Shown one piece after another: positions 1 to 15,899 of a stretch of 64,000 nt of DNA (within the stretch, counting starts at the first letter, position 1; the number at the start of each line of letters is the position of its first letter). A model generated the notes under the pieces. The model did not search any database. It was not told where the DNA came from and was given only the letters and a program-made list of their open reading frames with translations. The DNA is from an uncultured archaeon (GTDB taxonomy: Archaea > Asgardarchaeota > Thorarchaeia > Thorarchaeales > Thorarchaeaceae): contig CAYYQL010000002.1 of assembly GCA_964473825.1 (NCBI GenBank), positions 205,288 through 269,287 of the forward strand, written 5' to 3'. The translations under genes were made by a program, and so were the position numbers.

Positions 1-1
1 G

Positions 2-547
2 TCTGTTCTTTCTCAAGAAGTGGAAACTCACATCAACAAATACGGTCTAAATGCAGTTGTACACCCGCCGTTTTGCAGCGTCTTGTTACGAAACGGAAGA
101 ATCAAAGAATATCCGCTCTATCATTATACGAAATCTATGGAGTCCGGCCTCACTGTTCTAACTCATGGCGACGTCTGTTTCGATATGCAAGAGGGTGCTT
201 CTATCCTTAGTGGGGACACGATAGTGACTCATTTGACAAGAAACCTGAAACCCAAGAGCGTACTTATCGGAACGGACGTCGATGGAGTGTACAAAGGAGA
301 TCCCAAGACCAATCCAGATGCACTCTTTGTTCCGGAGCTCGACAGCTCGAATTTAGATGAAATTGTTCGGTTTGCTGGCCCATCAGGAAGTACTGATGTC
401 ACTGGTGGTATGAAGAGAAAACTAGAAGGGCTGGTTGATGTTGCGAAGTACACTGAGAAGATTGCAATATTTAATTTGACAATATCGGGCCGTCTTCAGG
501 CTCTACTTCAACACAAACAGACACGATGCACCACAGTTATCGAATGA
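2..547 (+). CDS. ipk: Isopentenyl phosphate kinase (amino-acid kinase family), 5'-truncated by the window edge
   Basis: Motifs THGDVCFD..ILSGDTIV, GTDVDGVY and DVTGGMKRKL; frame is open back to the window start. Confidence 0.85.
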   Translation, partial: SVLSQEVETHINKYGLNAVVHPPFCSVLLRNGRIKEYPLYHYTKSMESGLTVLTHGDVCFDMQEGASILSGDTIVTHLTRNLKPKSVLIGTDVDGVYKGDPKTNPDALFVPELDSSNLDEIVRFAGPSGSTDVTGGMKRKLEGLVDVAKYTEKIAIFNLTISGRLQALLQHKQTRCTTVIE

Positions 548-549
548 AA

Positions 550-3500
550 CTAGTTTCGAATCGTGTTCAAACTCTTATCCAGTGTGACCAATTCCAAGTT
601 CTTAGGATTGACAATGCTCTCATCCATGTACTCTGCAGCCGAGAGAATACATACTATCTTCGTGGATTTGCATTTCCTACACGCAATGTCACCATGCATT
701 CGTTGAAGGGTTGTCAACTGCTGCTGAGTTGGAAACAATACATAGGACGTATCTCCAGAACAAAGGTCATAAAACTCATGACCAACATGTATAGGATTAG
801 ACTTCGCTAGATGATTTCTCAGAAACTCCAACGTTTCTTTTCGGAATCTCTCAAGTACCCGAGTATTGACAATCCAAAGCCCTTCTTCCATCTCAATCCA
901 TGTATCATTGGTTTCATTTCTTATTGCAGTCAGCATCTCATCAGCAAGTAATTCTGTCAAGGCCTGTTTTCCAATTTCTTTGCGAAGGGGAACCGACCTA
1001 GATTGAGAGCTTTGGAGAGAGGTAGTTTCAATGAAGTTGATAATATCATCCCACGAAACTAGACCACTCTTAAGTTCAACAAAGTCTTGCAGCAGTCCCA
1101 ACCATATTCGTTTTTGCACACGATCTGTGGATCTTCGATGCAAACCATCGTACTTCTCTGCTGCACCTTTCTCAAAAACAGATTCCGATTTCTCTACGAC
1201 GTCAAGATTCTCTCCTAATTCGGCAGGATTTCCTATTGGGCGTTCCAGAGTTTCTAGGAGTCCATCAAGAGAGCTTGGAAAGGCTGAAACGACACTGACA
1301 TTCTCAAATCCATTAATATCACTTATGAATTCTCTCAGTCTTGCCGCAGCAAGACTGCCCCTTACGACCACATGCATTGTCTGTACATTGTTGCCAAGAC
1401 TAGTCATCTGCTGACGGATAGTTTGCAGTATGCTATCAATAGACGACGACTTGAGATGCTGTGCAAAAATCAACACTGCTGTTTCATCCAACAGAATCCT
1501 GCACCCGGCTAGACCAACATCTTCGACACTTAGGTTACTACTGGAATCCACTCTACTAATGATGTAGTCTTTAATCACCCTCTTAATCGACTCTAATCCT
1601 TTTCCCGGCAATGCAAAGATAAAACCACCGGGCATTAATGATATCGACTCTCGCTCTATTATGGACCTAGAGATTAGTGTTTGAACTAGACTTTCGGCTT
1701 CATCCTCGGTGAAATCGGGTTTGACTTTGGCAATTAGCCTAGTCAAATCCTCCAGTATCACGGTTTTCTCTGACGCAAGGAAAGCCACGATATGACTAGT
1801 CACTTCTGAGATGCTTGACTCTAAGGTTTCTTCCTTTGACGGGAAATCTTCAGACTCGTTTATGCTTTCGTCTACAGCAATCACCTTAGAGTCAAAGATC
1901 CTGTCTTCATTATCGAAAGATGTTGATGGCTGCAAAGTTGCTATTTCAAAGGTGCGACACTTGGGGATAGATATTAGAGCTCTACCCACTTCGAGACCGC
2001 GGAGATATTTTTCCTGTTCTTCATCAAGAGAAAGAAACCTAGCTCCTACTTCGCTGTCATAGGGCAGACGGAAAACCACTTTTGTTGCAGTATTGGCAAG
2101 AATGTTTGATGAAATCGTCGGCCTCGTTGAAACAACAACTACACCTTGCCCCGTTGCTCTCTGAAGCAATACCATTGATTCCCCGGTTGTAACATCGGCA
2201 GCCGTATTCCTTGTGTAGCTCTCAGGTACAAGATTACTCGCTTCTTCCAAGACAACTACATGTTCTAGGTCCGAACTAAGCCCACGTTTCATTGCATTTT
2301 CAAAAATGCGTTTAGCTACCAGATTGTACAGTAATCTCGCTGCATCCATACCACCCACCCTTGCAACATACCTTAGGTCAAATATCACCCTGCTCTTCAG
2401 CAAATCCGAAATCCGAATCTTCTTTCCTTTATTGCCAAATACAGACTTCAGTGGCTCTCTCGTAAGGATTTCTAATCTATTGAGTAGCGCATCTCTAGTC
2501 ATCTGACCCGAACGATCGTTTCCGGCCAACTCCTCAATCTTCTCTACAAGGATGGAAACAGAATCCAGCTCACTCTTTATGCTCACTGTTTCAATGACTG
2601 CATCCCTGAGAAGCTTTTCCATCGCTGGAGACAAATCAGATGAGGTTCCTCTTTCTCTTAGAAGCTCACGCAGAATCACAAAGGTTGTATGAGCAGTTTC
2701 CTTCGAATCTGTTTCACTATCGATTAGCTCAATCACGAAGTTGGGATCAAGGCCAGGTCGCAACATCAATACCGGGGTATTCCCACAATTCGTAAGATCA
2801 CTATATTCAGAGCCTTTTACATCAAATATCCACCAAGGCATTTCTGTCTTCTGACTCAATTGGGCTATCAACTGCCTCACAAGAGTTGTCTTGCCGGTTC
2901 CGGTTGCTCCTAGAACCGCCATGTGTTCCACCAACCAGTTCCTTCTGAGACCCACCGGGCTGAGGTTTCTTTCCTCATAGATGGCCCAGCCAAGCTTCAA
3001 TTCATGATCTATCTTCTCTCGTGAAGGAATCTCAAATACGGGTGTATATGACTTAGAAATGACAGGCAATCTTTGAACAGGGAGATTGACGTAAGCAACT
3101 AAGTCATTTGTATGTATGCGCTGTTTCTTGATGTGCCCTCTAGTTATCATTCGATAGAGTGTAGGGCGATCAATCTTGTGGCTCCCCATCTCAAAGCTTT
3201 CATCATTCCCCCACAGCGATGCAACTATTCCATCCAAGCTATTCATTGTCGAACGAGATTCATCATCGGTCTCATATTGCACTTGAATGTAGACGGTGGA
3301 ATCATACCAGCCTCCGTCACTCTGTATGTTTCTATACTGGCCTAACAGTTCTTGTTTTTCGGCTTGTTCTGCAAGCGAATCATCCTTTCTCTTCTCCTTT
3401 GTTCTAATCTTCCGCCATCTTGACTCCAACTTCTTTCTCTCTCTTCCAGGTCTTGCAGCAGAAAGGGTACAAACCAACAAAGCATTGGCCTTCTGTTTCA

Positions 3501-4263
3501 GAAGAGTTGACATAAACCTACCAATCTGAGTTGCATTGGATTTTGGTGAACATCTTGGCCTGCCCTTTAATAGAAGAAGCACTTTTCCCACATTAGAAGA
3601 CCAGCTCGCATCTCCACTCAAGTTACTCCTTGTTACAGCCTGTTCCAACTCGATGCCCTTTAATTGTCGAAGCTCGATCTTCTGCAACGAGGACATGATG
3701 ATCGCTTCGCACCTTGTGGCTTCTCTTTGTAGAATTCTCTTCAGTGCATTCACAGAGTTAGCCGTTGTTGTAACGAACAGTCGAACAATCGGTTGGTTGT
3801 TTTCGATACCTGCCTCAAATGTGACTCTAACTTCGTCTTCCAAACCAGCTCGTATAGCTAATAACATCGATGTATCATATACTGCCTCCCCCTCTTCATC
3901 TCTTAGCGCCGATATCGAAGTGGAATCTATCTGAAGACAGCATGTTCCTACATGATGATCTCCCATTGATACAATAACCAAATCATCATCAGTTCCAACG
4001 ACAACATCCTCTAAGGCTACTCGTATGGCCGTCCCCATAAGTACGGCCAATACTGGAATCGAACACAGCATCAACTCAACTGCAAGCTTGAAGGGATAAC
4101 TAGGTGCATTGACCATCCCAAGAATAGGAAGAAAGTAAAAGGCAATCGCATATACACTTGTCAATATGGCCCCTGCTGGCCAAACATATCTGACTAGCTT
4201 GTCGGCCGTTTGTCGAAGATGCTGATCTGCTTTCCCACTCGCGAACTCCACTATCCGATTCAC
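550..4263 (-). CDS. Membrane-anchored VirB4/HerA-like (DUF87, CedB-like) P-loop ATPase with a long C-terminal extension
   Basis: Two N-terminal hydrophobic helices; Walker A HMAVLGATGTGKTT; IFDVKGSEY; Walker B VVVLEEA; VVVSTRP..ILANTATKVVFRL, typical of FtsK-HerA/VirB4 ATPases. Confidence 0.8.
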   Translation of the reverse strand: MNRIVEFASGKADQHLRQTADKLVRYVWPAGAILTSVYAIAFYFLPILGMVNAPSYPFKLAVELMLCSIPVLAVLMGTAIRVALEDVVVGTDDDLVIVSMGDHHVGTCCLQIDSTSISALRDEEGEAVYDTSMLLAIRAGLEDEVRVTFEAGIENNQPIVRLFVTTTANSVNALKRILQREATRCEAIIMSSLQKIELRQLKGIELEQAVTRSNLSGDASWSSNVGKVLLLLKGRPRCSPKSNATQIGRFMSTLLKQKANALLVCTLSAARPGRERKKLESRWRKIRTKEKRKDDSLAEQAEKQELLGQYRNIQSDGGWYDSTVYIQVQYETDDESRSTMNSLDGIVASLWGNDESFEMGSHKIDRPTLYRMITRGHIKKQRIHTNDLVAYVNLPVQRLPVISKSYTPVFEIPSREKIDHELKLGWAIYEERNLSPVGLRRNWLVEHMAVLGATGTGKTTLVRQLIAQLSQKTEMPWWIFDVKGSEYSDLTNCGNTPVLMLRPGLDPNFVIELIDSETDSKETAHTTFVILRELLRERGTSSDLSPAMEKLLRDAVIETVSIKSELDSVSILVEKIEELAGNDRSGQMTRDALLNRLEILTREPLKSVFGNKGKKIRISDLLKSRVIFDLRYVARVGGMDAARLLYNLVAKRIFENAMKRGLSSDLEHVVVLEEASNLVPESYTRNTAADVTTGESMVLLQRATGQGVVVVSTRPTISSNILANTATKVVFRLPYDSEVGARFLSLDEEQEKYLRGLEVGRALISIPKCRTFEIATLQPSTSFDNEDRIFDSKVIAVDESINESEDFPSKEETLESSISEVTSHIVAFLASEKTVILEDLTRLIAKVKPDFTEDEAESLVQTLISRSIIERESISLMPGGFIFALPGKGLESIKRVIKDYIISRVDSSSNLSVEDVGLAGCRILLDETAVLIFAQHLKSSSIDSILQTIRQQMTSLGNNVQTMHVVVRGSLAAARLREFISDINGFENVSVVSAFPSSLDGLLETLERPIGNPAELGENLDVVEKSESVFEKGAAEKYDGLHRRSTDRVQKRIWLGLLQDFVELKSGLVSWDDIINFIETTSLQSSQSRSVPLRKEIGKQALTELLADEMLTAIRNETNDTWIEMEEGLWIVNTRVLERFRKETLEFLRNHLAKSNPIHVGHEFYDLCSGDTSYVLFPTQQQLTTLQRMHGDIACRKCKSTKIVCILSAAEYMDESIVNPKNLELVTLDKSLNTIRN

Positions 4264-4450
4264 ATCCTTCTTAATTCAAGCCTATAGAAGCATACTCTCA
4301 ACTCAGAGACTGATTCAGTACGATTCAATATGAACACCCCCGAGAATTCCAGGAACCGGTTCATTGGAACTTCAGATTGCCAACCAACAGCAACCATCTG
4401 GAATGGAGAGACACAGACCGCGCCTCTATTGAAGAGAAATTACCATATTA

Positions 4451-4475
4451 TCCCAGAGGAACGAAAAGAGGGGGT
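4451..4475 (+). promoter_or_regulatory. ORB-like motif (candidate Orc1/Cdc6 binding site)
   Basis: TCCCAGAGGAACGAAAAGAGGGGGT resembles the archaeal ORB core (TCCAnnnGAAA/C) followed by a G-string, in a divergent intergenic region. Confidence 0.3.
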
Positions 4476-4594
4476 TAAATTCTCTGCTCGTGAGAGATTT
4501 GTGAGAAAGCCGGCCAGTTCCCAGAAACAAGTCGGGATCATTTCCAGTTTCTGAAGGGGCACTCTATAGTCTGCTTACTCAAGACCAGCTGCAG

Positions 4595-6565
4595 GTGAAT
4601 ACAAGTATGGGAAACCTAAGAATCCTTACCATATCGATGATCTTGATTGTAGTCGGGATGATATATTCGTCGCCCATGGAAGAGGCAGATGGGGGCATCC
4701 AAGTTGCCTATCGGGGAGAGTACACGAATCTAACAGCGCAACTGCTACAGAACGGTACATACGGCGACCCGGTGATAGGGGAGCCAATCGAATTCTATGA
4801 GGAAACAACAGACACTTTGTTGGGAATCAGTCTGACAGATTTCCAAGGCTACGCAACTCTTGAATGGCACGTTCCATTGAATCACACATTAGGGACAACA
4901 CTTGTAAACGCAACATACCGAGGTAATGAAACCATCTTTCTTGCTCCCTCCTGTCAATGGTTAGAAGTCACTATCTATATGCGCACTAAGTTGAAAGCCA
5001 GCGTATCTGATACGCATCTAGCACCAGGTGACCTACTGTTCATCTCTGCAGAGTTACGAAATCAACAAAACGAAACATTAGGAAACGAAATACTGGAGTT
5101 ACGTTATGGAAACAACACAATGGCCACGACTTACACCAATTCCTCTGGTCTGGCTAGATTCCTAATTCATGTTAACAATTCTTGGGCGTATCTTGGCGAG
5201 AACACACTCACAATCAATCATCCCCAGAATCCTGATACCTATACCTCACAATCCTGGGATCTCATAACAGTTACTGTCAATAAAGTGACATCTTGGATAG
5301 ATTGTACCCATAATCACCTAGAAACGCTATCTCTTGGGGATTCCTTGAATCTTCACATTAGACTCAATTCCACAGAAGGACATCTGATTCACAAGAATCT
5401 ACGATTTTACTTGAATGGGGGTCTCTATACCAGTCTGCAAACAAACTCAACAGGTAACGCCGAACTACTCCTAATAATGGATGAATCATTCACCATTGGA
5501 CCCCAACACTTGGAGGTACGTTTCGAGGGCACTGACAGATATACCTCATGCCAAGAAGTCATCAGCTTCGATATACTCACATCAGTACTTGTTTCAGTAC
5601 AACAGCCCAATTTGCCAATTATTGCGATGAATACTACCTTGAAGATCCACGCGCATGACCTTTTCAGACGGCCGATTTCCAATGTTGTTGTCCAATTCTA
5701 TGACAGAACAAGTAATTTGCAAATATCTATGAATTATGAGCCGCCATTTATCACCATCGAGTTTCCTGTTCTTCCACCCAAAGGTCCTCACGATATCCAC
5801 ATTAACTTCGCAGGAAATCCATACCTTTCCAATGGGTCCTTGAATTATACCATCTATTGCTGGTCTTGTCCTGACTTCAGTAGGTTAAACTATAGCATAG
5901 AGGGCTATGCTTTTCCTGGTCAGGAAATTATAGTGGAAGCTCAACTACGGGATTTTAACAGTTCTCTCTCTCGGCACCCCGTAGATTTGCTAGTAGATGG
6001 AGTGCACACACTAACCACAAGAACAGACAGTGGTGGGGATTTCAAAGCCAGTCTTGCGGTTCCATTGCATCAAGGCGCCCACAATATGACTCTTATCTCC
6101 CATAGGATGGAGCCAAACTACATAGCAGAATCATTGGTTTCATACAGCTTCATAGTCACAAACAGAATCCCTGTAAGGGTTGTTCTGATTGAGCAGCATA
6201 TCATCCCCCCTCTGAAGAGCATTGACGTTACATTAGAAGCCAAGGCGCTCAACGGCAGTTACCCCAATGGTCTGATTATTCAATATAGATGGTTAGATAT
6301 CGTCCAGACGAGCCAGTCCGACCACTGGGGAATATTCCAATTACAGCTGCCGCTGCCTAGCCTCCCCGGGCTATATCATCTGACAATAGGCCTTCTACCG
6401 ACATCCTATACTAGAGCTCTTAATGACTCGATTCTGATTAGTATTTCTGAAGACCAAATCCTTGCTGCCCAAGGAGTCGGAATTCCTATCTTAACTCTTA
6501 GTCTAACTAGCTCGTCGGTATTGGCCATGATACCCTTTCTAAGAAGAAAATACCTTATCGGATAA
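4595..6565 (+). CDS. Secreted, C-terminally membrane-anchored Ig-like repeat surface glycoprotein
   Basis: N-terminal signal/TM; beta-rich repeats (TDFQGYATL, TNSSGLARF, TNSTGNAEL, TDSGGDFKA); many NxS/T sequons; C-terminal hydrophobic helix followed by RRK. Confidence 0.7.
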   Translation: MNTSMGNLRILTISMILIVVGMIYSSPMEEADGGIQVAYRGEYTNLTAQLLQNGTYGDPVIGEPIEFYEETTDTLLGISLTDFQGYATLEWHVPLNHTLGTTLVNATYRGNETIFLAPSCQWLEVTIYMRTKLKASVSDTHLAPGDLLFISAELRNQQNETLGNEILELRYGNNTMATTYTNSSGLARFLIHVNNSWAYLGENTLTINHPQNPDTYTSQSWDLITVTVNKVTSWIDCTHNHLETLSLGDSLNLHIRLNSTEGHLIHKNLRFYLNGGLYTSLQTNSTGNAELLLIMDESFTIGPQHLEVRFEGTDRYTSCQEVISFDILTSVLVSVQQPNLPIIAMNTTLKIHAHDLFRRPISNVVVQFYDRTSNLQISMNYEPPFITIEFPVLPPKGPHDIHINFAGNPYLSNGSLNYTIYCWSCPDFSRLNYSIEGYAFPGQEIIVEAQLRDFNSSLSRHPVDLLVDGVHTLTTRTDSGGDFKASLAVPLHQGAHNMTLISHRMEPNYIAESLVSYSFIVTNRIPVRVVLIEQHIIPPLKSIDVTLEAKALNGSYPNGLIIQYRWLDIVQTSQSDHWGIFQLQLPLPSLPGLYHLTIGLLPTSYTRALNDSILISISEDQILAAQGVGIPILTLSLTSSSVLAMIPFLRRKYLIG

Positions 6566-6569
6566 GAAT

Positions 6570-6678
6570 TGGTGCTCCGGCCGGGATTCGAACCCGGGTC
6601 GAGGGATCGAGAGTCCCTCATGCTGGGCCGGACTACACTCGGTTGATTCATGCACATTCATGAAACATCTACCGGAGC
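6570..6678 (-). tRNA. tRNA-Glu(CUC) with a 31-nt BHB intron at position 10/11 (intron 6638..6668); CCA encoded
   Basis: Spliced GCTCCGGTAG|TGTAGTCCGGCCCAGCATGAGGGACTCTCGATCCCTCGACCCGGGTTCGAATCCCGGCCGGAGCACCA folds as a full cloverleaf; central helix CGGT/ACCG with bulges AGA and AGT. Confidence 0.9.
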
Positions 6679-6753
6679 TTTGGCAAGCCAGTTCGGAGCG
6701 ATGTTTCACCACATAGTATCCAAAATAAGGCTTTCCGTCCGAAAACAATCGGA

Positions 6754-6957
6754 TTACGGAAGAAGGTCTGTAAGTCCACTCCAACTGTCTTCCAATAGAT
6801 GAAGTAATCCATTCACGACTTCTTGTGCCCACCCAGTGGCCTGCAATATCACCGCAATCACAATGGAAACAGTGACAACGGCGATACCAAGAAGCAGACT
6901 CTCTTCTACAAGAGGCCCGCCATTCTCATCAGAGAGCAATTTTCCCTTATCGCACAC
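6754..6957 (-). CDS. Flp/Tad-like small pilin (class III signal peptide)
   Basis: LLSDENG|GPLVEESLLLGIAVVTVSIVIAVI: DExG cleavage site, Glu at +5, long hydrophobic helix; 67 aa; directly downstream of a pilus ATPase gene. Confidence 0.65.
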   Translation of the reverse strand: MCDKGKLLSDENGGPLVEESLLLGIAVVTVSIVIAVILQATGWAQEVVNGLLHLLEDSWSGLTDLLP

Positions 6958-7028
6958 GGTCTTTTCACCCTGAACTCTCTTCTTCCCAGGGATATTTTAA
7001 CTCCCCTAGAATCAAGACTCACTAGGTA

Positions 7029-8741
7029 TCAACAGGCACGACTTGATGATTCAAGGCAAGAAACTGTCTGTTCCTGCAGGTGCTCTGTGGCTTCATGTGG
7101 TTCCATGAATCTCATTGTCCCTATCCTTGCAACTAGATTCTCGTACATGAAATTGAAATCCTCTAACCCATCTTCCTCGCATCGCAACCAAACCGCCCCA
7201 TCCTTAATCATTCTGTTCGGAAGATCCGCATTGGAATCGTTAGAGTATAGTATGTTGAGTCCTCGAAATTCAATGCAACCATCCTTTCTTCCTCTCCTGA
7301 CCTCAACAATCTCGCTCACGTATCTGCGAGAATCTCCCGGGTTCGGTCTTCTCATTGTTACAATAAGGTCGAGCATCGCAAGGCTAGTATTGACAATATG
7401 GTGATTCACCCGGAATCTCGAAATCAAAGATGATGCAGAATCACTATGACAGGTATTAGCACATCTCAGTCCGGCAGACAGAGCATGAAATAGCGCATGA
7501 CTATGTTCTTTCGTTTGAATCTCTCCGAGGATGACATAATCTGGGGAGCGGTGTAGGGATTTGATTATCTCCCGAGTCTTATCGGAAACCCCTTCCATCT
7601 CATCAAGAGGATCCACTTGAATCCTAGTTTGATGCTGATTCGGATGAACCCGACTTTCGATAGCATCTTCAATATAGATCTTCCTCCATACTGAAGGTGT
7701 TATCTGGTCTAGAGCGTTTAGTAGGGTAGACTTACCTGTTCCTGGTCCTCCTGTAATAACAATATTCTGGCGTAGACGCAATGCAAGGATAAGGAGAGCT
7801 GCCCCCTCAGCCGAGATTGTTTCATTATGAATCAGATGAAACAACGTCATTATCTCCCTTCTTGCTCTTCTTATCTGCATCTGAAAACCATCGGGACACA
7901 GGGGCATAACAGCCATCGAAACCCGGAGGTTTGCATCTAAGAAGCCCACTCTACTCTTGAAAGAAGGGTTTCTCCTGTCGAGGTGGTGATTACTCTCCAG
8001 CCTAGCAAGTGTCACCATCGGCTTGATTGCGCTTCTTGGAAAAACCCAATCTGATTTGCACCGTCCCAGACGAGCATGATCGAAATAGACTTGAGAACCC
8101 GGGCTGTCAATGAATATCTCCTCAATTTCGTCGTCTAGTAATAATGGAATTATTGGAAATAGTACAGTTGAGCTATGACTTGCAATTTGGGAAATAGTAT
8201 CTCTCGTCGGTATGCTTATCTCTGGCAGTGATTCTTCCAGTTCTTCACACACTTTGTGTTGCAGATATCTAACTCTCTGCGTCAAAGATTCTGTACAACG
8301 CAACAGGCCTCTAGAGAACTCTGGGATCCTACTTGTCATCTTATCTAAGAGAACACTTTCAAGGTTAGACCTGAGTTTGGGAAGTGCAAAATAACACATC
8401 TCATTCTCACAACCCGCCTGTGTGAATATTGATACGTAAGGTCCTATAATATAGGCATCAATGACCCCATCTGTTTCCAAATTCTTTCCCATAGTATTGT
8501 CTATCCAGACCTGCTCCCAATCTCCAGAACACCAAGGCGGATTTGGTGGGACCGCGTTGTAGTCGGTAGGAATATACATGAAACCCCTCTCTCTCTCCAC
8601 AATGATGGGCGTCAGCTGTTCAGCGCTTTCCCTAGCAAAAGCTAGTACAGAACACTTACCATTTCGACTATTATGACAGTTATCGCATCTTTCCGGCGAA
8701 CACATCACCAGATTCACATATTGTTTCGTCATGCTAATCAA
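7029..8741 (-). CDS. Type II/IV secretion-pilus assembly ATPase (TadA/CpaF/VirB11 family)
   Basis: LLLDDEIEEIFIDS; Walker A ITGGPGTGKST; Asp box YIEDAIE; SLHRSPDYVILGEI; NTCHSDS; Cys-rich N-terminus. Confidence 0.85.
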   Translation of the reverse strand: MISMTKQYVNLVMCSPERCDNCHNSRNGKCSVLAFARESAEQLTPIIVERERGFMYIPTDYNAVPPNPPWCSGDWEQVWIDNTMGKNLETDGVIDAYIIGPYVSIFTQAGCENEMCYFALPKLRSNLESVLLDKMTSRIPEFSRGLLRCTESLTQRVRYLQHKVCEELEESLPEISIPTRDTISQIASHSSTVLFPIIPLLLDDEIEEIFIDSPGSQVYFDHARLGRCKSDWVFPRSAIKPMVTLARLESNHHLDRRNPSFKSRVGFLDANLRVSMAVMPLCPDGFQMQIRRARREIMTLFHLIHNETISAEGAALLILALRLRQNIVITGGPGTGKSTLLNALDQITPSVWRKIYIEDAIESRVHPNQHQTRIQVDPLDEMEGVSDKTREIIKSLHRSPDYVILGEIQTKEHSHALFHALSAGLRCANTCHSDSASSLISRFRVNHHIVNTSLAMLDLIVTMRRPNPGDSRRYVSEIVEVRRGRKDGCIEFRGLNILYSNDSNADLPNRMIKDGAVWLRCEEDGLEDFNFMYENLVARIGTMRFMEPHEATEHLQEQTVSCLESSSRAC

Positions 8742-8873
8742 TCCGGATGAGATATCCTCTCACTTTGTACAATACTCATATCGTGTCCAAGCTCGAAATC
8801 AGGACACAATAATGATAATGGGGTAGTTTCACATTGGTGTTGAATATATGCAATATAATCTCCAACCAATCAG

Positions 8874-9902
8874 CTAACTTCTTCCGATTATGGTCTTCAT
8901 CATTCCATAATGGTCTCTAATACTGTATTCAGCGACTTCAGTCGCTCTAGATGCCAACTTCTGCGTTAACACTGAACGTTTGCCAAAATCACTGGCTACT
9001 AAACGGTCTCCTGCGTATGCAGCTGAAACTGTGAAAATGAATGGATTACGTCCTCCTCGTGCTGTGGCCGGAATTCTATCAATTACTTCTAACATCTTAA
9101 GTCGGAGTCTGCTTTCATAATCTCTCAAATCCCATCCTCTTGCTTCTATCTTTTTCACAATCTTGGTGTTATTCATCAACATGGAGATGACCCGCGGAAC
9201 ATAGTCTTCCGGTTGGCGAATTTTGGGTGCATACCCTGTCACCGACCGAAGCCTAAGTGCTTCTCTGACCATTGCCCGTACACTGACTCTATGACCACAC
9301 TTGTCAAAAACATCGGCAATTTCATCCAACGTAATTGGTGCCTCCTCTTTGAACTCTCGAACTGCCATCAGAAGACAGACTGCTATCAGAAGGATATTAT
9401 TGGTTACTTCCACTTCTTCTTCTGTTAGGACTTTTTTGTAGAGATAGGCAGTACGATCTCGAACTTGCTCACTTAGCATAAGAAGTTTGGATGCCCGATT
9501 CAATGTTCTTAATGCTCGATATTTTGCCTCATCTTTGCCAATCCTGATTCTGGTACTATAGACTGTTTTCAGTCGCTTGAACTTTCTCTGATTTCGACCC
9601 GACAATGGATGGCCGGCAACATCACGAAAGTATCTATCTCTATGAAAGCCAATGTAGCTCCCTAAACCATCTACAATATGCATCCTGTTCCCTAAGGAAA
9701 CATACATTGTAGCATCTGGTGTTTCTGCTCCACTTTCCTCTCCCATTTGGTAAGTTGGATACACATATTCTCGAGAAATCACCAATCCACAACTCGTACA
9801 AACAACATGCCCACGATTTACCAGTAGAGGTCCATTACAGTCAGGACACGAATTCATCGTATTTCTGTGTTCATTGTTTGATCTATTCGCCAAAGACCAC
9901 AC
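8874..9902 (-). CDS. tfb: Transcription initiation factor IIB (TFB) family protein, divergent (start may be ATG 9857)
   Basis: Zn ribbon CPDC..VCTSCGLV; two cyclin-like repeats (PEDYVPRV, GRNP, TQKLASRATEVAEYSIR). Confidence 0.8.
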   Translation of the reverse strand: MWSLANRSNNEHRNTMNSCPDCNGPLLVNRGHVVCTSCGLVISREYVYPTYQMGEESGAETPDATMYVSLGNRMHIVDGLGSYIGFHRDRYFRDVAGHPLSGRNQRKFKRLKTVYSTRIRIGKDEAKYRALRTLNRASKLLMLSEQVRDRTAYLYKKVLTEEEVEVTNNILLIAVCLLMAVREFKEEAPITLDEIADVFDKCGHRVSVRAMVREALRLRSVTGYAPKIRQPEDYVPRVISMLMNNTKIVKKIEARGWDLRDYESRLRLKMLEVIDRIPATARGGRNPFIFTVSAAYAGDRLVASDFGKRSVLTQKLASRATEVAEYSIRDHYGMMKTIIGRS

Positions 9903-10080
9903 CCAGTGTTCCTAGTAGCCCTATTACCTAACATTCTTTCAGAAGGCGAGTTTCCTACTATCAGGCTGAACTGTCTACTGGATAGGACTAGCTAGTTGAT
10001 TGAAGGGGCATGATAATACCACCCTGAATGAGGGTTAACCGAAAGTAATGTGTGTTTCTTCCACCTGACTGACGAATCTG

Positions 10081-10446
10081 CTAGAAGATTGCTATGTAAA
10101 TCCGATTCCCAGTGAAGATTCGTTTCTTTGCTGCAGTGACCTTTTCCATTTCTAGTACTAATCTGAGTCCACCAAAAGTTCCTACAGCCTGTATCCCTTC
10201 TTCTAGTCTTGCCTTAAACACATTACCTTCAGCATAGAATTTCGCTTCATCTCCATTGGAGATTGGGCTATCATCAATAACAATATCAAGATTCTCTTTT
10301 GCATCAAACTGATTTGCCAAGGCTTCTGGGACTTCTAAGGTCATCTCTAATCCCTCACTCTTCTCGGTAATACTTAGCATCATCAGGCCTTTGGTCTCGG
10401 TTTCTTCAATCGAGTCCAATTTGCTCCCTTTAATTCGAATAGCCAT
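10081..10446 (-). CDS. rpoG: RNA polymerase subunit RpoG/Rpo8 (Rpb8 homologue)
   Basis: OB-fold-like; C-terminal KFYAEGNVFK...GTFGGLRLVL matches the Rpb8 YxMxGxVYK...SFGGLL signature. Confidence 0.75.
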   Translation of the reverse strand: MAIRIKGSKLDSIEETETKGLMMLSITEKSEGLEMTLEVPEALANQFDAKENLDIVIDDSPISNGDEAKFYAEGNVFKARLEEGIQAVGTFGGLRLVLEMEKVTAAKKRIFTGNRIYIAIF

Positions 10447-10566
10447 GGGTCTTTCAATTCTCCTCTAAGAGGTCTATCATTCTCGACTTGGAAGGATGAA
10501 TTAAACCTGTCGTTGTCCTGGTGTGACTTTTTTAGGCATAGGTTTCACAGATTCTTGGTGAACTAG

Positions 10567-13182
10567 GTGAATCATCACACCAAAGCAAGCACGATAATCC
10601 CTGTGGCCCTCATTCTATGTCTAATCGTGCCCGTCGACGCCTACTACTTCCAGTTCCAGTATTTTGAAACCGACCGAGCCGTCTATGAGGTCGGACAAAC
10701 AATCAACATGGTTGCAAAACTCATAGCAGAATTCAGTGACGAAGGATGGTGTTTTGTTTCATTTGGAGTCGTAACAGACGTAGGCCCAATTTTTCAAGAT
10801 GGGTACTACATTGAGTCTTCGTTAGACCCACAGTTCACAACAAGCTATTACACTATCCTCCCCAACGAAACGTACCCTGGTCTAAGCGGTACTATAGCCC
10901 ACGTGATTTTCAATGCAGAGATCTACGATGGATACTCTCAGAGCATTACCGAAACAATAGAAGTAAACATAACACGCGGCCATCTCTCTGTCCTCCCTCT
11001 AAGCGAACTGGAACTCCCACATGGAATAGACTCAAACATCTCGCTGAAGATAGCAAGTACTCACAATGAGGACGTGGTTCTCCAAGAGCAAGTTCTCTCC
11101 TACCAAGTCAATGGCATAGACTCTTCATATACGGTCGAGGGTAATGAGAGCATCAATTCTCAAGGAATCGCTACTATACCTTTGAATTCTTCCAGCATCA
11201 ATCCCGGGCACTATGATCTGACTGTAAGCACAGAGGGAACAGACTCGTTTCTTCCTCTGGTGGACACACTTCCTATATACATCACCCCTCCCAACTCATC
11301 TTTATTGGTAAGGTCTAGTCCTGATGAAATTCATTGCCCAGACCATGAAGGAGTCGACATAGGAAGTGTTAACCTCCTTGTCGATCACCTCGGAGAAGAT
11401 GGCGAAAGAATCAAGAACAGCACCATATCGTGGGAAACGGTCTTTTCACAGTCTAACTTCACGAATCACTTCAATGGAACTTATAGTGCTTCAGTGCAGT
11501 TTCCAGTTTCTCCCGGAAACTACACCATTCTCATCATTGCCAAGAATGAAATATATGCTTCAGTCAACATAACCAAGACAATATTGGTAACCAAACGTAC
11601 GCCAGCAATTACTGTATCCTTTCCCAGTGGCTTGATAGCAGGCAACGAAACTTCATTACAACTGACTCTTACGGATTCACTCTTAGAAAGCCCTATACCA
11701 AGTCTTGAATTCAATGTCACCATTTCCCTTAGTGACCAAGTCCTTTACAACAATGCTACCTCAGTTAATACAGATGGTTCCTTCAAAGCAGAATTCGAGA
11801 TCTCTTCCGATTTATGGGGTTTGGCAGACATTCGCGTTGAAACTTACGAAAATGAGAATTATACTGGTATGATTCTAATAGATACTCAAAGTGTCGAATT
11901 CGTACCAGAAGTTTGCTGGGTTCAAAACACGCCTTCTAACATTGGTCAGAACACAAGCATGTCAGTTACACTACTCAAGCCCGATGGCCAGAGTCTAGTA
12001 GGAATCACTGTTTCGCTATTTGATTCCTATGCGCAATTGATAGGCTCTACGCACACCGATGCAAATGGCACCGGTGAGTTTGTCTGGACCGTTCCAAGTG
12101 ATCTTCCTTCTGGTTCTTATGAATACACAATTGTTACCACAGAAATGCCTTCTCAATTCGCTTTGGCAACCTTTCTGGCATTTCAGCTGTCACATTATGA
12201 TCTATTGTCGGTGAGCCTTCAAGGAGAGGACTTTGACTGTCTGCGAGGAGAAAACTTCACACTGAATTTCCGGGTTGACTCCAATTGGAACGAAACTCAA
12301 AACCTACTATTGCAGCTTTCGTTTTCCACACTAATAACAATCAATCAGACTATCAAATCTGATACAGTATACTCTATTCAGATTCCGGTTCCAGCCGACT
12401 CTTCCCTTGGAACGCATTCACTTACTATTGGCACACTAAATAATACATGCGTCCTCTCAGGGTCAGTCTTAGTTGACATCAACATCTTGGGGCGCATCAT
12501 AGTGGCCATTGAATCGGCTGAGGCCTTTTACGCCGAGAATCTTTCCATGACTCTCTCACTAATGGACGAATTCGGTCTTTCGGTTGACGAGTTCTCCATC
12601 ACTGTATTCCTAGACGGGCGGTTCGTAGATGTGATTCACAGATCGAATCAAACAATAGAAGCCATTGCAATATCTAATGCATTTTCCCCGGGAATTCACA
12701 ATCTGACCGTAACGATAAATGGAACATACTACAAATCAGCTGAGGATGAGGCTTTTCTGACAATCTGGATGAGAACGTCACTTTCTCTAGCCCTCAACCG
12801 AAACCAATTCAACTTCTCCTGCAGTCAGGGCGATGAAATGACCTCAATCATTTCTTCTGGTTCTATCATCAGCCCCCCGCCAATCTTGTTTAATGGGACC
12901 ACTTCTACACAATCTCCAACCACTCGTTCTATCTCCCGGGATAATTGCCCCAAACTGAGTTCTGGAACCAATAATCGCTCAACTGATTCAGAGAAGGCTT
13001 TTACTTCTCTATCGGGGAACGGCCAGACGGTTCTAAGCCTCAGCGACTTCATTGACAGCATGGATGAGGCCGTAAACATGACTTCTTCGACTGTTCGAGA
13101 GGTGCAACCATACGATACAATTCCCCATTCTGCCTTTTCAGGTCCTTTGATGATTGTATCAGTAAGAAGGCTTCGCCTCTGA
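10567..13182 (+). CDS. Large secreted Ig-like repeat glycoprotein; the last ~119 codons overlap the oxidoreductase gene in antisense
   Basis: Signal peptide; ETDRAVYEVGQTI (MG2-like start); beta-sandwich repeats; many NxS/T sequons. Confidence 0.65.
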   Translation: MNHHTKASTIIPVALILCLIVPVDAYYFQFQYFETDRAVYEVGQTINMVAKLIAEFSDEGWCFVSFGVVTDVGPIFQDGYYIESSLDPQFTTSYYTILPNETYPGLSGTIAHVIFNAEIYDGYSQSITETIEVNITRGHLSVLPLSELELPHGIDSNISLKIASTHNEDVVLQEQVLSYQVNGIDSSYTVEGNESINSQGIATIPLNSSSINPGHYDLTVSTEGTDSFLPLVDTLPIYITPPNSSLLVRSSPDEIHCPDHEGVDIGSVNLLVDHLGEDGERIKNSTISWETVFSQSNFTNHFNGTYSASVQFPVSPGNYTILIIAKNEIYASVNITKTILVTKRTPAITVSFPSGLIAGNETSLQLTLTDSLLESPIPSLEFNVTISLSDQVLYNNATSVNTDGSFKAEFEISSDLWGLADIRVETYENENYTGMILIDTQSVEFVPEVCWVQNTPSNIGQNTSMSVTLLKPDGQSLVGITVSLFDSYAQLIGSTHTDANGTGEFVWTVPSDLPSGSYEYTIVTTEMPSQFALATFLAFQLSHYDLLSVSLQGEDFDCLRGENFTLNFRVDSNWNETQNLLLQLSFSTLITINQTIKSDTVYSIQIPVPADSSLGTHSLTIGTLNNTCVLSGSVLVDINILGRIIVAIESAEAFYAENLSMTLSLMDEFGLSVDEFSITVFLDGRFVDVIHRSNQTIEAIAISNAFSPGIHNLTVTINGTYYKSAEDEAFLTIWMRTSLSLALNRNQFNFSCSQGDEMTSIISSGSIISPPPILFNGTTSTQSPTTRSISRDNCPKLSSGTNNRSTDSEKAFTSLSGNGQTVLSLSDFIDSMDEAVNMTSSTVREVQPYDTIPHSAFSGPLMIVSVRRLRL

Positions 13183-13958
13183 AGGATTTTATCGCGAAGT
13201 CTTTCAACTAATCTACGATGGACCTCGGAATCCGAAGTCTTTCTGTAGCCTCTCTCATCGTGCGTGGAACCTGTTACCAAGAGATTATGCCCATCACCAA
13301 AACGCGGCATTATCGCATGTCCGTTGCCATCAATCTCTCCATACGGCTTCTTGCCCTTTCTGGCGAATCTTCTCTTTATAGAATAGTCTGTGCCCGAGTC
13401 TATGACTACTCTCTCACGGGAGTGACCTACTACTTCATCAGAAAGCAGTATGACCGGATGCCGAAAACACTCTGACAAAACAAAGGCCCTTCTAGTGAGT
13501 TCGAACGCTTCTTGTGCCGAATTAGGCGACAGTACTATGCTCTCATGATCTCCGTGAGTTCCCCATCTCGACTGCAGAAAATCTCCCTGTGCACATTTGG
13601 TAGCCTGACCGGTACTCGGACCCACTCTCTGCACATCAACTACCACACAGGGTGTTTCGGTCATGACTGCATATCCTATGTTTTCTTGCATAAGGCTAAA
13701 ACCAGGCCCCGACGTGGCAGTCATGGCGAGATGTCCGCCCCACGAAGCGCCCACTACAGCTGATATCGCTCCGATTTCATCTTCCATCTGAAGATATCTC
13801 CCATTCATCTCCGGCAGTTTCTCTGCCATGATTTCGGCTATCTCAGATGCAGGGGTAATTGGATATCCTGCAAAGAACCTACACCCGGCCGCCAGTGCAC
13901 CTTCTGCGCATGCCTGATTCCCTTGCCAGAAATGGACATGCGTTGTTCTATTAGACAA
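12825..13958 (-). CDS. korA: 2-oxoacid:ferredoxin oxidoreductase alpha subunit (KorA-like)
   Basis: GNQACAEGA, FFAGYPITPASE, QMEDEI, TATSGPGFSL, QRVGPSTG. Confidence 0.92.
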   Translation of the reverse strand: MSNRTTHVHFWQGNQACAEGALAAGCRFFAGYPITPASEIAEIMAEKLPEMNGRYLQMEDEIGAISAVVGASWGGHLAMTATSGPGFSLMQENIGYAVMTETPCVVVDVQRVGPSTGQATKCAQGDFLQSRWGTHGDHESIVLSPNSAQEAFELTRRAFVLSECFRHPVILLSDEVVGHSRERVVIDSGTDYSIKRRFARKGKKPYGEIDGNGHAIMPRFGDGHNLLVTGSTHDERGYRKTSDSEVHRRLVERLRDKILQRRSLLTDTIIKGPEKAEWGIVSYGCTSRTVEEVMFTASSMLSMKSLRLRTVWPFPDREVKAFSESVERLLVPELSLGQLSREIERVVGDCVEVVPLNKIGGGLMIEPEEMIEVISSP

Positions 13959-14067
13959 TCTTAAGACACTCAGTACTCTCGCCAGCTTGCCGAATAAAAT
14001 AAGCCTTCAGTTTGGGCAACAGCTTCTCCGATAGTCTTTTATCGAAATCACCTGATTTTCCCTTCAG

Positions 14068-14165
14068 GCGGCCGTGGTCTAGTTTGGTTAGGACGGAAGC
14101 TTCCCAAGCTTCCAACCCGTGACGGTCGTATGACCGCGGGACTTCAAATCCCGGCGGCCGCACCA
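14068..14165 (+). tRNA. tRNA-Gly(CCC) with a 21-nt BHB intron at 53/54 (14122..14142); CCA encoded
   Basis: Acceptor GCGGCCG/CGGCCGC; anticodon arm GAAGC-TTCCCAA-GCTTC; central helix CCCG/CGGG, bulges TGA and ACT, intron stem CGGTC/GACCG. Confidence 0.88.
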
Positions 14166-14209
14166 TATCTTTGGTCATGTTTAAGAACCCATTTCCAGAA
14201 TAGGCCATT

Positions 14210-14283
14210 TGGCGAGTGATGAGTACAATGACCCCGATGAGTCAAGAAGACGATGATTTAGATCTTGAGTGACGAGCTCGCCA
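14210..14283 (+). ncRNA. Candidate box C/D-like sRNA
   Basis: Terminal stem TGGCGAG/CTCGCCA; box C GTGATGA; D'-like CCGA after an 11-nt guide; C'-like ATGAT; TTTAAG TATA-like element ~28 nt upstream; canonical CTGA box D absent. Confidence 0.4.
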
Positions 14284-14380
14284 CCATTACTTTCGCTTAC
14301 CTGTGCTCCTGGTGTACGATTAAGTGAACAGAGCGCAGAACGCTTTTAAGCATCTGCGTGACCTTCCATACTGGTCTGCA

Positions 14381-15580
14381 ATGTCACATGACTTCGTTGA
14401 AGACGAGCTGAGTCGACATAGTGTTTTCAAATCTGAACATTTCTTGTCAATCGATTATGTGCCAGAAGGCCTTCCTCATCGCGAAAAGGAGCTCCGAATG
14501 CTCGCTCAGACATTCAAGACTCTCATCACTTCGCCTGGCCGAACAAGCATCAGACTCCTGATTGAGGGGCCCGTGGGCACGGGTAAGACAGCAGTGGCCA
14601 AGCGCTTCTCTGAGCAACTTGTACAAGCAGCCGATAGAAGAGACATAAGATTACACAAAGTTCACATCAATTGTCGTGTCAGTAAGAGTGTATATTTGGT
14701 GTACCTACGAATGCTTCGTGAGTTTAAACCTCGATTTCCAAAACGGGGCCACTCACCGCAGGAAATCCTTCAGATGCTTGTCGAGGTACTAGATAGGGAA
14801 GACAGGTATGTCCTCGTCATATTGGACGAACTAGACTATTTCATGAAGCAGCAGGGTGCGGACATTCTCTACGATCTGACTCGGTTAATGGATGACCGCT
14901 TGAACGCTCCTCAACGAATTTCCATTATTGGCGTTGGTCGTCGAATTCCATTAGATAGTGATCTTCTTGATCAGAGTACCCGAAGCACTCTACAACGAAA
15001 TATGCTACGATTTGACAAATACGACTTTTCCGCTCTTCTTGACATTCTAAGAGAACGAGTTTCCATGGCGTTTAAACCAGGTGCAATTATGAATGACACA
15101 CTAGAATTGATATGCAATATTGCATCTGAACGAGGCGATGCCCGATATGCAATCGAACTCCTGTGGCGTGCCGGCAAACAAGCAGACCGCGTTGAATCGG
15201 ATGTGGTCATCCCTGACTATGCTCGCCAAGCAAAGGCCGATACTCACCCAGAACTCAGGAAAGAAGTCCTCACTACACTACCACTTCACAACAAACTGCT
15301 TCTTCTTGCTGCCACTCGAAAACTGAAAGAGAATCGAGGGGCTTATGCAACTATAGGTGAAGTGGAAGAAATGTATGGTTCTATATGCGAGGAGTACGGG
15401 AAAGAACCCCGAGCACACACACAGGTGTGGGAGTGGGTTCAGGACCTGACTGCCCATGGTGTCATAGACACTCAACGTTCGGGTGCGGGTCAAAGGGGGC
15501 AGACCACAATGGTCGGCCTCTCAGATGTTCCAGCGCAAATGCTAGAACGCTTTCTAATTGAATTACTCGATAAGCGATAG
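14381..15580 (+). CDS. cdc6: Orc1/Cdc6 replication initiator (start taken at ATG 14381)
   Basis: DYVPEGLPHRE; GPVGTGKT; HINC; VILDELD; GDARYAIELL; C-terminal winged helix. Confidence 0.93.
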   Translation: MSHDFVEDELSRHSVFKSEHFLSIDYVPEGLPHREKELRMLAQTFKTLITSPGRTSIRLLIEGPVGTGKTAVAKRFSEQLVQAADRRDIRLHKVHINCRVSKSVYLVYLRMLREFKPRFPKRGHSPQEILQMLVEVLDREDRYVLVILDELDYFMKQQGADILYDLTRLMDDRLNAPQRISIIGVGRRIPLDSDLLDQSTRSTLQRNMLRFDKYDFSALLDILRERVSMAFKPGAIMNDTLELICNIASERGDARYAIELLWRAGKQADRVESDVVIPDYARQAKADTHPELRKEVLTTLPLHNKLLLLAATRKLKENRGAYATIGEVEEMYGSICEEYGKEPRAHTQVWEWVQDLTAHGVIDTQRSGAGQRGQTTMVGLSDVPAQMLERFLIELLDKR

Positions 15581-15881
15581 GTTGCGATACTTGATGACTG
15601 ATGAAACCACCACTTACATCCCCATTGAGGAGATTTTTTCGTCGAAAGGACGAATCAAGATACTGAAAGAATTGGCCCTTTCCCGCGAACTCAATATATC
15701 AGAACTATGCCGAAGAGTCAGCCTCAACCATACCACAACCAAGAAGCATCTCAATGCCCTCATGGATTCAGGACTCGTCGAAGAAAAGACATTCGGGCGG
15801 ATTAAGATCTATAGATATAGAATCGAAGATTTGCGTGCTAGGTCTCTCAAGAACATGCTTGACCTTTGGCGTTCGACCTGA
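15558..15881 (+). CDS. Winged-helix (ArsR-like) DNA-binding protein next to cdc6 (true start likely ~15594)
   Basis: IFSSKGRIKILKEL..ELNISELCRRVSLNHTTTKKHL..L..SGLVEE. Confidence 0.8.
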   Translation: MNYSISDRLRYLMTDETTTYIPIEEIFSSKGRIKILKELALSRELNISELCRRVSLNHTTTKKHLNALMDSGLVEEKTFGRIKIYRYRIEDLRARSLKNMLDLWRST

Positions 15882-15899
15882 GGGGGTTGTCAGTATACC

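Follow-up and report, generated by a model that had tools for sequence, protein, structure and literature searches.

A locus near the start of a 64,000-nucleotide (nt) stretch of DNA from an uncultured archaeon of the family Thorarchaeaceae (assembly GCA_964473825.1, contig CAYYQL010000002.1, positions 205,288-269,287 of the forward strand; the whole stretch is referred to below as the window) combines a set of type IV pilus genes with a giant membrane-anchored ATPase that resembles CedD. DNA import in Sulfolobus and Saccharolobus requires CedD (Saci_0667 / SiRe_1715), a membrane-bound ATPase of the HerA/FtsK superfamily that is induced together with the Ups pili and the Ced system by TFB3, a paralog of transcription factor B (TFB) (PMC11823120, PMC11868833). 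We interpret the locus as two linked modules of one ancient archaeal surface machine, with pilus-linked DNA uptake or exchange as the likeliest role, and put the probability of this interpretation at about 0.55. The locus is a rearranged, loosened form of an ancestral pilus operon that is shared by Asgard archaea and the TACK superphylum (Thaumarchaeota, Aigarchaeota, Crenarchaeota and Korarchaeota). A preliminary description of this DNA had suggested that it might be a chimaera, a view that we abandon; the ancestral operon also includes a TFB paralog and the RNA polymerase subunit RpoG and occurs across Asgard and Thermoproteota. The genes of the locus, with the lengths of most products in amino acids (aa), are:

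A, 550..4263, minus strand: 1237 aa, membrane-anchored CedD-like (HerA-clade, VirB4-fold) ATPase
B, 4595..6565, plus strand: 656 aa, surface glycoprotein with Ig-like repeats, divergent from A
C, 6754..6957, minus strand: 67 aa, putative Flp-like prepilin
D, 7029..8741, minus strand: 570 aa, TadA/VirB11-class secretion ATPase
E, 8874..9902, minus strand: 342 aa, divergent TFB/TFIIB paralog (zinc ribbon and one detectable cyclin repeat)
F, 10081..10446, minus strand: RpoG/Rpo8-like RNA polymerase subunit, head of the co-directional string
G, 10567..13182, plus strand: 871 aa, second secreted protein with Ig-like repeats, divergent from RpoG; tentative member

The preliminary description had listed A, B, C, D and the second Ig-repeat gene at 10567 with the coordinates that we find, and had omitted the same-strand genes E and F. 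On the minus strand, the order in Thorarchaeia is RpoG, the TFB paralog, D, the Flp-like C and then A, with a partial tRNA and the inverted gene B lying between C and A.

The pilus genes and their operon in Asgard archaea and Thermoproteota

The secretion ATPase D contains a Pfam T2SSE domain (PF00437, 75.7 bits; cut-off 24.9), and its best NCBIfam model is that of the TadA family (TIGR03819, 83.6 bits), with TrbB and FlaI scoring lower. The residues of the Walker A, Asp box, Walker B and His box motifs are invariant across 15 Asgard homologs, and the N-terminus carries a four-cysteine motif (C-x4-C-x2-C-x8-9-C) that is conserved in the Thorarchaeal D proteins. D is the only strong T2SSE gene of this genome (G000); a second, weak T2SSE match (G000:C2:167039-167443, plus strand; 424-aa frame, 34.9 bits) belongs to a protein that is kept at about 425 aa in all genomes of the family.

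The TFB paralog E retains a detectable zinc ribbon and a TFIIB repeat that scores 26.3-26.6 bits, compared with 53-85 bits per repeat for the six other TFB genes of the genome. Homologs of E adjoin D or lie close to it in most Asgard and TACK loci, and E is a dedicated partner of D across two phyla. The product of F matches PF16992 at 24 bits, under the cut-off of 27; its position is kept in the Thorarchaeal family, in an Odin-like locus (L064) and in several TACK loci, with the order F-E-D conserved.

For gene C, the differences between 15 orthologs fall on codon positions 1, 2 and 3 as 274/118/595, a clear coding signature. The product appears to be a class III-type prepilin: a variable leader is followed by the invariant GGPLVEESLLLG and a hydrophobic helix, with predicted cleavage at G|GPLVEE, glutamate at +5, about 22 hydrophobic residues and a short amphipathic tail. 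We found 374 homologs, one of them named 'Flp pilus assemb...' by JGI. In the operons of Asgard and TACK archaea, homologs with the pattern [KR]xG|SP[LI][VM]EE follow the TadB/TadC genes; in the Asgard classes other than Thorarchaeia, the motif continues as [KR]xG|SP[LI][VM]EE[GAS]LL.

No platform protein (TadB/TadC, PilC or ArlJ) is encoded in the 64-kb window. The genome has one 506-aa T2SSF protein, located amid unrelated genes (G000:C29:5249-6769; PF00482, 36-41 bits), and a fused T2SSF protein of about 510 aa is found at an unlinked locus in 21 of the 24 genomes of the Thorarchaeal family. An A24 prepilin peptidase of 167 aa (PF01478, 40-42 bits) is encoded 180 kb away (G000:C2:23620-24123). 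The preliminary description had recognized D as a TadA/VirB11 ATPase and C as a Flp-like pilin, and had supposed that TadB/C and a prepilin peptidase are encoded elsewhere or that the system is atypical; the former is the case.

A scan of species-representative genomes with a D alignment returned 80 loci; the D clade comprises loci of Asgard, Thermoprotei, Bathyarchaeia, Nitrososphaerota, Methanomethylicia, Culexarchaeia and Nezhaarchaeales. None of the 80 is a named locus of Pyrobaculum or Thermoproteus. In Asgard classes other than Thorarchaeia, the D operon reads [RpoG]-TFB paralog-D-TadB-TadC-Flp-like, and the Odin-like L064 joins the complete string with a ParA/MinD-like gene and a T2SSF protein. 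In Thermoproteota, the order is RpoG-TFB-like-D-TadB/C-Flp-like-CedD-like. Seven Thermoproteota loci encode a transmembrane (TM)-anchored ATPase homologous to A immediately after the Flp-like gene, and these TACK Flp-linked ATPases reach 177-248 bits on the CedD model, 45-70 on HerA and 20-46 on CedB models.

A second sample, 201 Thermoproteota genomes, was searched with the CedD model. A CedD-like gene is present in 62 of these, and seven proteins, all from Sulfolobales, reach the equivalog cut-off, which the Sulfolobus acidocaldarius control reaches as well. Of the 55 non-Sulfolobales CedD-like loci, 37 (12/23 and 25/32 in two sets) have a Flp-like gene immediately upstream in the same orientation, and the two open reading frames (ORFs) often overlap or abut. 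Of the 32 loci for which wide flanks were available, 26 contain D and 23 contain the TFB paralog. Given the one-strand Thorarchaeal order RpoG-TFB-D-Flp-[B inverted]-A, A holds the positional slot of the TACK CedD-like gene.

Several variants of the operon were observed. Five short, TM-less CedD-like forms are encoded in RpoG-x-CedD-like operons that lack pilus genes. In three small Thermoproteota genomes (L198, L199, L200), such operons encode RpoG, an ORF of 107-124 aa and a CedD-like protein of 340-351 aa next to a thermosome gene, so that the RpoG link persists after loss of the pilus genes. Between the TFB paralog and D, four loci (L120, L130, L134, L139) contain divergent sets of 3-4 ORFs whose products, 120-340 aa long and with a single hydrophobic segment near the N-terminus, are likely minor pilins; L134 also shows a weak A24 peptidase match (19.9 bits). 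In a Hodarchaeota pilus operon (L071), a 406-aa ORF (8107-9327, plus strand) with an N-terminus resembling IS200/IS605-type TnpB is located between the TadB-like and TadC-like genes.

The membrane-anchored ATPase and its surface partner

ATPase A consists of a TM hairpin (residues ~1-85), an N-domain (~87-400), a P-loop motor (~410-782) and a C-terminal extension. Its central domain matches Pfam DUF87/HerA at 52 bits (cut-off 23.2); the matches to TrwB, FtsK and VirB4 models of Pfam and NCBIfam are weak and at the level of the P-loop, with Pfam FtsK_SpoIIIE below its cut-off. The Walker A residues G452, G455, G457 and K458 are invariant across 46 homologs, and the family of A is annotated as 'ATP-binding' or 'DUF87' proteins and nothing more specific.

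The AlphaFold2 model of residues 1-800 (mean predicted local distance difference test score, pLDDT, 81.7) reproduces the hairpin, with two hydrophobic helices at 2-47 and 59-84, the N-domain and the motor. With this model as the Foldseek query, full-length TrwK/VirB4 ranks first (E 2.7e-21), above HerA, in an alignment that spans both domains. Realignment of the motor gives Z scores of 30.4 for the DndH C-domain, 30.0 for the C-terminal domain of VirB4 (4ag5), about 27 for TrwB, about 26 for HerA and about 18 for FtsK. In the model of the C-terminal 458 residues (pLDDT 76.8), two winged-helix domains (~812-888 and ~1044-1135) are each followed by an alpha/beta domain; the winged helices match many DNA-binding winged-helix domains with Z of 7-9.5. 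Restriction-endonuclease-like folds were considered for the alpha/beta domains, for which the matches are weak and mixed (FokI, AF2093, Shedu nuclease, small GTPases) and point neither to nor away from a nuclease.

A scores 15-20 bits on CedB and VirB4 models (19.6 bits on the VirB4 model TIGR00929 with its cut-off of 643) and 32-35 bits on HerA models that have cut-offs of 800, compared with 132-140 bits for the canonical HerA encoded in the window. In a maximum likelihood tree of the ATPase domains, from which the VirB4 reference of five TACK genomes, a single weak, long-branched sequence, was left out, the Asgard A clade is monophyletic (100/100) and distinct from CedB, strict CedD, the TACK Flp-linked clade and HerA. 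A constrained tree that joins A with the CedD-like proteins is 9.3 log-likelihood units worse and is not rejected by the approximately unbiased (AU) test (p 0.24). The N-domains are more telling than the tree: comparison of their profiles with hhalign links the Asgard A proteins to the TACK Flp-linked CedD-like proteins (probability 93.7%, E 1.9e-7) and the latter to Sulfolobales CedD (94.5%), whereas the probability of homology of either A or the TACK Flp-linked proteins to the HerA HAS-barrel is 0.2%. Because the N-domain matches the CedD-like proteins and not the HAS-barrel, A is assigned to the broad CedD-like family rather than to HerA.

From these comparisons we conclude that A most probably is a divergent, enlarged member of the broad CedD-like family, with its N-domain linked to CedD by transitive profile homology, and that it is neither CedB nor VirB4 proper and very probably not a repair HerA. 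The membrane-anchored VirB4/HerA-like ATPase of the preliminary description is borne out by the hairpin, the DUF87 match and the fold; its suggestion that A groups with VirB4 or CedB holds for the VirB4 fold and fails for sequence membership. Two further large HerA-superfamily ATPases of the genome (G000:C10:8571-12113, plus strand, 1180 aa; G000:C29:26406-28337, plus strand, 643 aa) are on long branches and take no placement in the tree. A CedA model was sought through the cedB neighbourhood, in which the neighbour is a hexulose isomerase gene and there is no cedA; the small TM ORFs beside the A homolog of another Asgard genome (G029, L049), considered as possible CedA/CedA1-like proteins, have no family match. 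No CedA/VirB6-like channel, CedA1 or relaxase was found for the present locus, although no search aimed at CedA was made.

Conservation was assessed in 40 relatives, 24 of which are genomes of the same family. A has orthologs in 23 of the 24 family genomes, and so does D. In 22 of 23 genomes, A and D share a contig and are no more than 7 kb apart, so that the lack of co-conservation named in the preliminary description as speaking against a joint system is not observed. A tblastn map of 15 family loci shows one block, collinear in about 15 genera and made up of isopentenyl-phosphate kinase, A, B, C, D, E, F, G, oxoacid oxidoreductase and Orc1/Cdc6. In rearranged family genomes, C can part from D. 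Outside the family, the Atabeyarchaeia chromosome encodes a 1253-aa A homolog on one strand between ATP synthase genes (genome G036, L046, identical to L110, 6056-15080), flanked by the intein-containing subunit A and by subunit B of the A-type ATP synthase.

Gene B encodes a protein with numerous N-x-S/T sequons that begins with a signal peptide, has a TM helix at the C-terminus and matches Big_3_5 barely at the cut-off (35.7 versus 35.5 bits), as expected of the divergent, membrane-anchored Ig-repeat glycoprotein that had been proposed. The divergent A-B pair survives every rearrangement seen (G006, G012, G017) and is also kept in another family of the same order (G025); the tie of B to A is limited to the Thorarchaeal order. 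The position of G is conserved within the Thorarchaeal family, and the similarity of G to B is weak (24% identity, E 0.001). The 3' end of G overlaps the convergent gene for a 2-oxoacid oxidoreductase alpha subunit by 358 nt (12825-13182), so that the end assigned to G, whether the stop or the C-terminus, is tentative.

The genomic neighbourhood

The other features of the window that bear on the locus are:

~6581-6639 (within 6570-6678), minus strand: partial, non-canonical tRNA between B and C (Rfam 33.4 bits, model positions 9-63)
14324-15580, plus strand: Orc1/Cdc6 replication initiator (366 bits)
52079-53590, minus strand: canonical HerA (132-140 bits on HerA models)
53598-54752, minus strand: 384-aa ORF with no family match, adjoining the canonical HerA; may be NurA

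The partial tRNA lies directly downstream of the pilin gene C, on the same strand; ARAGORN reports no tRNA in window positions 1-16000, despite the Rfam match at 6581-6639. A small ORF between A and B (4330-4554) has no homolog in the relatives and no family match and is therefore treated as non-coding. In many Asgard loci (L064, L073, L074, L076, L129, L135 and others), an Orc1/Cdc6 homolog is a few kb away from the D operon, which places the pilus module in a conserved origin-proximal neighbourhood. The canonical HerA gene adjoins those for CTP synthase and acetyl-CoA synthetase, not Mre11/Rad50.

Possible function, alternatives and relation to known systems

In this interpretation, F-E-D-C are the first module and represent, in Thorarchaeia, a Tad/Flp-like type IV filament system that is conserved across Asgard and Thermoproteota. 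E presumably controls transcription of this module; C would be cleaved at the predicted site by the 167-aa A24 peptidase before assembly, and D, together with the fused TadB/C platform encoded on contig 29, would assemble the pilin. The second module would be A, a motor of the hexameric type anchored by the TM hairpin and paired in Thorarchaeia with the anchored glycoprotein B, a putative lineage-specific surface partner. By analogy with the Ups pili and Ced, which are co-activated by TFB3 in Sulfolobales, the likeliest role is contact with a cell or substrate through the pilus and B, while A would use ATP to move DNA across the membrane and might plausibly grip it with the winged helices. The gene identities, folds, conservation and linkage are directly supported by the data; processing of the pilin, formation of a filament, a DNA substrate and cooperation of the two modules are inferred. 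It is possible, at less than even odds, that a dedicated DNA-uptake or exchange pilus, with a Flp-type filament, a CedD-like pump and its own TFB, was ancestral to TACK and Asgard; the Ups/Ced/TFB3 circuit would then be a dispersed derivative of this pilus, and the Thorarchaeal locus an elaborated form with a giant two-winged-helix pump and an Ig-repeat contact protein.

Several observations weigh against the two modules acting as one machine, and most of them favour the main competing explanation, which we consider somewhat unlikely: two independent neighbours, namely an adhesion or surface-sensing Flp-type pilus (C-D-E) and a separate membrane translocase (A with B), in which A could be an FtsK-like pump of chromosomal or other DNA, or an exporter serving B. 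One genome of the order (G025) keeps A-B, with no D and no T2SSF found, and two Odin-like genomes that are 97-98% complete (G026, G037) have the full pilus operon and no A homolog detectable with this query. In Asgard classes outside Thorarchaeia, the A homologs (830-1253 aa, TM-anchored) are encoded far from D, among genes for phosphoenolpyruvate synthase, phosphoglycerate kinase, the DRG GTPase or ATP synthase. No B homolog was found beside the A homologs of other Asgard classes or in the TACK operons. In the three rearranged family genomes (G006, G012, G017), A-B moves as one block and D-E as another, and the collinear block also holds unrelated metabolic genes and Orc1/Cdc6, so that the synteny in part is plain collinearity. 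The TM anchor, the motor, the winged helices and the proximity to Orc1/Cdc6 would all suit an FtsK-like role of A. The family assignments meet objections as well. C has no Pfam (including Flp_Fap) or NCBIfam match even at E 10, so that its assignment as a prepilin rests on the signal pattern and gene context. A scores 67 bits on the CedD model (NF053655), with an equivalog cut-off of 600, and the canonical HerA of the same genome scores 72; the score of A, and its status as a best hit on this model, are therefore not counted as evidence of membership. The direct N-domain comparison of A with Sulfolobales CedD is not significant (6%), and the best CedB matches in the genome reach 18-19 bits, with a cut-off of 700. 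Against independent neighbours stand the presence of a like ATPase directly after the Flp-like gene in 37 of the 55 Thermoproteota loci, often with overlapping or abutting ORFs, and the Thorarchaeal A that keeps the same slot and strand and shares N-domain homology with the TACK Flp-linked proteins. Of the Tad-type pilus coupled to a VirB4-type translocase that the preliminary description had envisaged, the filament pair D and C, the anchored ATPase and the linkage that recurs in Thermoproteota remain; in the other Asgard classes, the A homologs are not linked to the pilus operon.

Two other explanations have lower probability. No genes accompany D more constantly than the TFB paralog and RpoG, and the short, TM-less CedD-like genes occur in RpoG-x-CedD-like operons without pilus genes, as might be expected if D-E-F were a repurposed remnant in a transcription-related pathway and C a small membrane partner instead of a pilin. 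The similar subclade 4D has been read in this way: it combines a VirB11-class ATPase, the N-terminus of which carries a small Cys-rich domain, with a small membrane protein, a TFIIB homolog and RPB8, and in Pyrobaculum and Thermoproteus it is described as pilin-less, a probable remnant that is restricted to Thermoproteales and perhaps related to transcription (Makarova 2016, PMC4858521); a 2026 survey of type IV filaments in PLoS Genetics likewise considers 4D a likely remnant and the Asgard filament genes scattered and unlikely to act together (PMC13705601). We consider this improbable for the present module: most Asgard and TACK versions carry TadB, TadC and a Flp-like gene with a class III-type signal and Glu+5, as well as minor-pilin-like genes with an N-terminal TM segment and, in some cases, an A24 peptidase or ParA/MinD gene, and D keeps all its catalytic boxes. 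Still less probable, to the extent that we give it very little weight, is an origin of A from a HerA helicase of the repair type that acquired a membrane anchor, with a role in DNA end resection. A matches DUF87, and in the ATPase-domain tree its clade is weakly sister to repair HerA (69/77), a grouping that had been proposed as a check on the VirB4/CedB affinity and that goes against our assignment of A; the alternative topology with the CedD-like proteins is, however, compatible with the data by the AU test, and the N-domain speaks for CedD-like proteins and, lacking HAS-barrel homology, against HerA. In addition, A falls far below the canonical HerA on the HerA models, has the TM hairpin, and none of its neighbouring genes encodes NurA, Mre11 or Rad50.

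In the literature, CedD is known only as a stand-alone Sulfolobales gene or, as TedD, inside Ted loci. What the present analysis adds is a putative pilin for the 4D-type module, a CedD-like ATPase as the regular last gene of the operon in many Thermoproteota, and a giant Thorarchaeal ATPase in the same operon slot. Should the machine transport DNA, the closest archaeal relatives of eukaryotes would have a widespread means of exchanging genes, and the Ups/Ced/TFB3 DNA-repair circuit could be traced to a concrete origin that is open to testing. The short, putative Glu+5 Flp-like pilin and the TadA-like ATPase bear on the proposed archaeal origin of bacterial Tad pili.

Comparison with characterized systems places the parts of the locus as follows. 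A follows the overall logic of FtsK/SpoIIIE, in which a pumping ATPase has a membrane anchor at its N-terminus and a winged helix at its C-terminus. The motor of A aligns with Z of only about 18, however, the Pfam FtsK_SpoIIIE match does not reach its cut-off, and A has a different N-domain and two winged helices with alpha/beta modules. VirB4/TrwK provides the best structural matches of A (Z 30 to 4ag5; TrwK at the top of the Foldseek ranking), whereas the sequence score (19.6 versus 643 bits), the lack of VirB2/3/6/8 context and the TM anchor of A itself set the two apart. CedD and TedD have the same architecture of a TM segment, N-domain and HerA-clade motor as A, and CedD shares with it the association with a type IV pilus and a TFB paralog, which takes the form of a regulon in Sulfolobus and of an operon here. 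A differs from CedD in its length of 1237 aa, its longer N-domain and its 450-aa extension with two winged helices, and from CedD and the Ced system in its score (67 bits versus 600), the best CedB matches of 18-19 bits in the genome, with no CedA or CedA1 partner found, and the Ig-repeat partner B.

The bacterial Tad/Flp (type IVc) system, which consists of TadA/CpaF, TadB, TadC, Flp and TadV, resembles the pilus module in that TadA is the best model for D, in the very short putative pilin with the G|xxxxE pattern and one hydrophobic helix, and in the short 167-aa peptidase; outside Thorarchaeia, the likeness includes two TadB/C-like platform proteins and, in Odin, a ParA/MinD-like gene. The present module differs in being archaeal, in having no secretin or TadZ/RcpA set and a dedicated TFB paralog, and, in Thorarchaeia, in the unlinked platform and a C protein without a Pfam Flp_Fap match. 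Subclade 4D is similar in the string of an ATPase with a Cys-rich N-terminus (D), a TFIIB homolog (E) and RpoG (F), with a small membrane protein adjoining. Unlike the 4D loci described so far, the module reported here spans Asgard and many classes of Thermoproteota; it includes TadB/TadC in most lineages, a CedD-like ATPase in Thermoproteota and, beside D, a candidate Flp-like prepilin that would supply the pilin missing from the descriptions of 4D.

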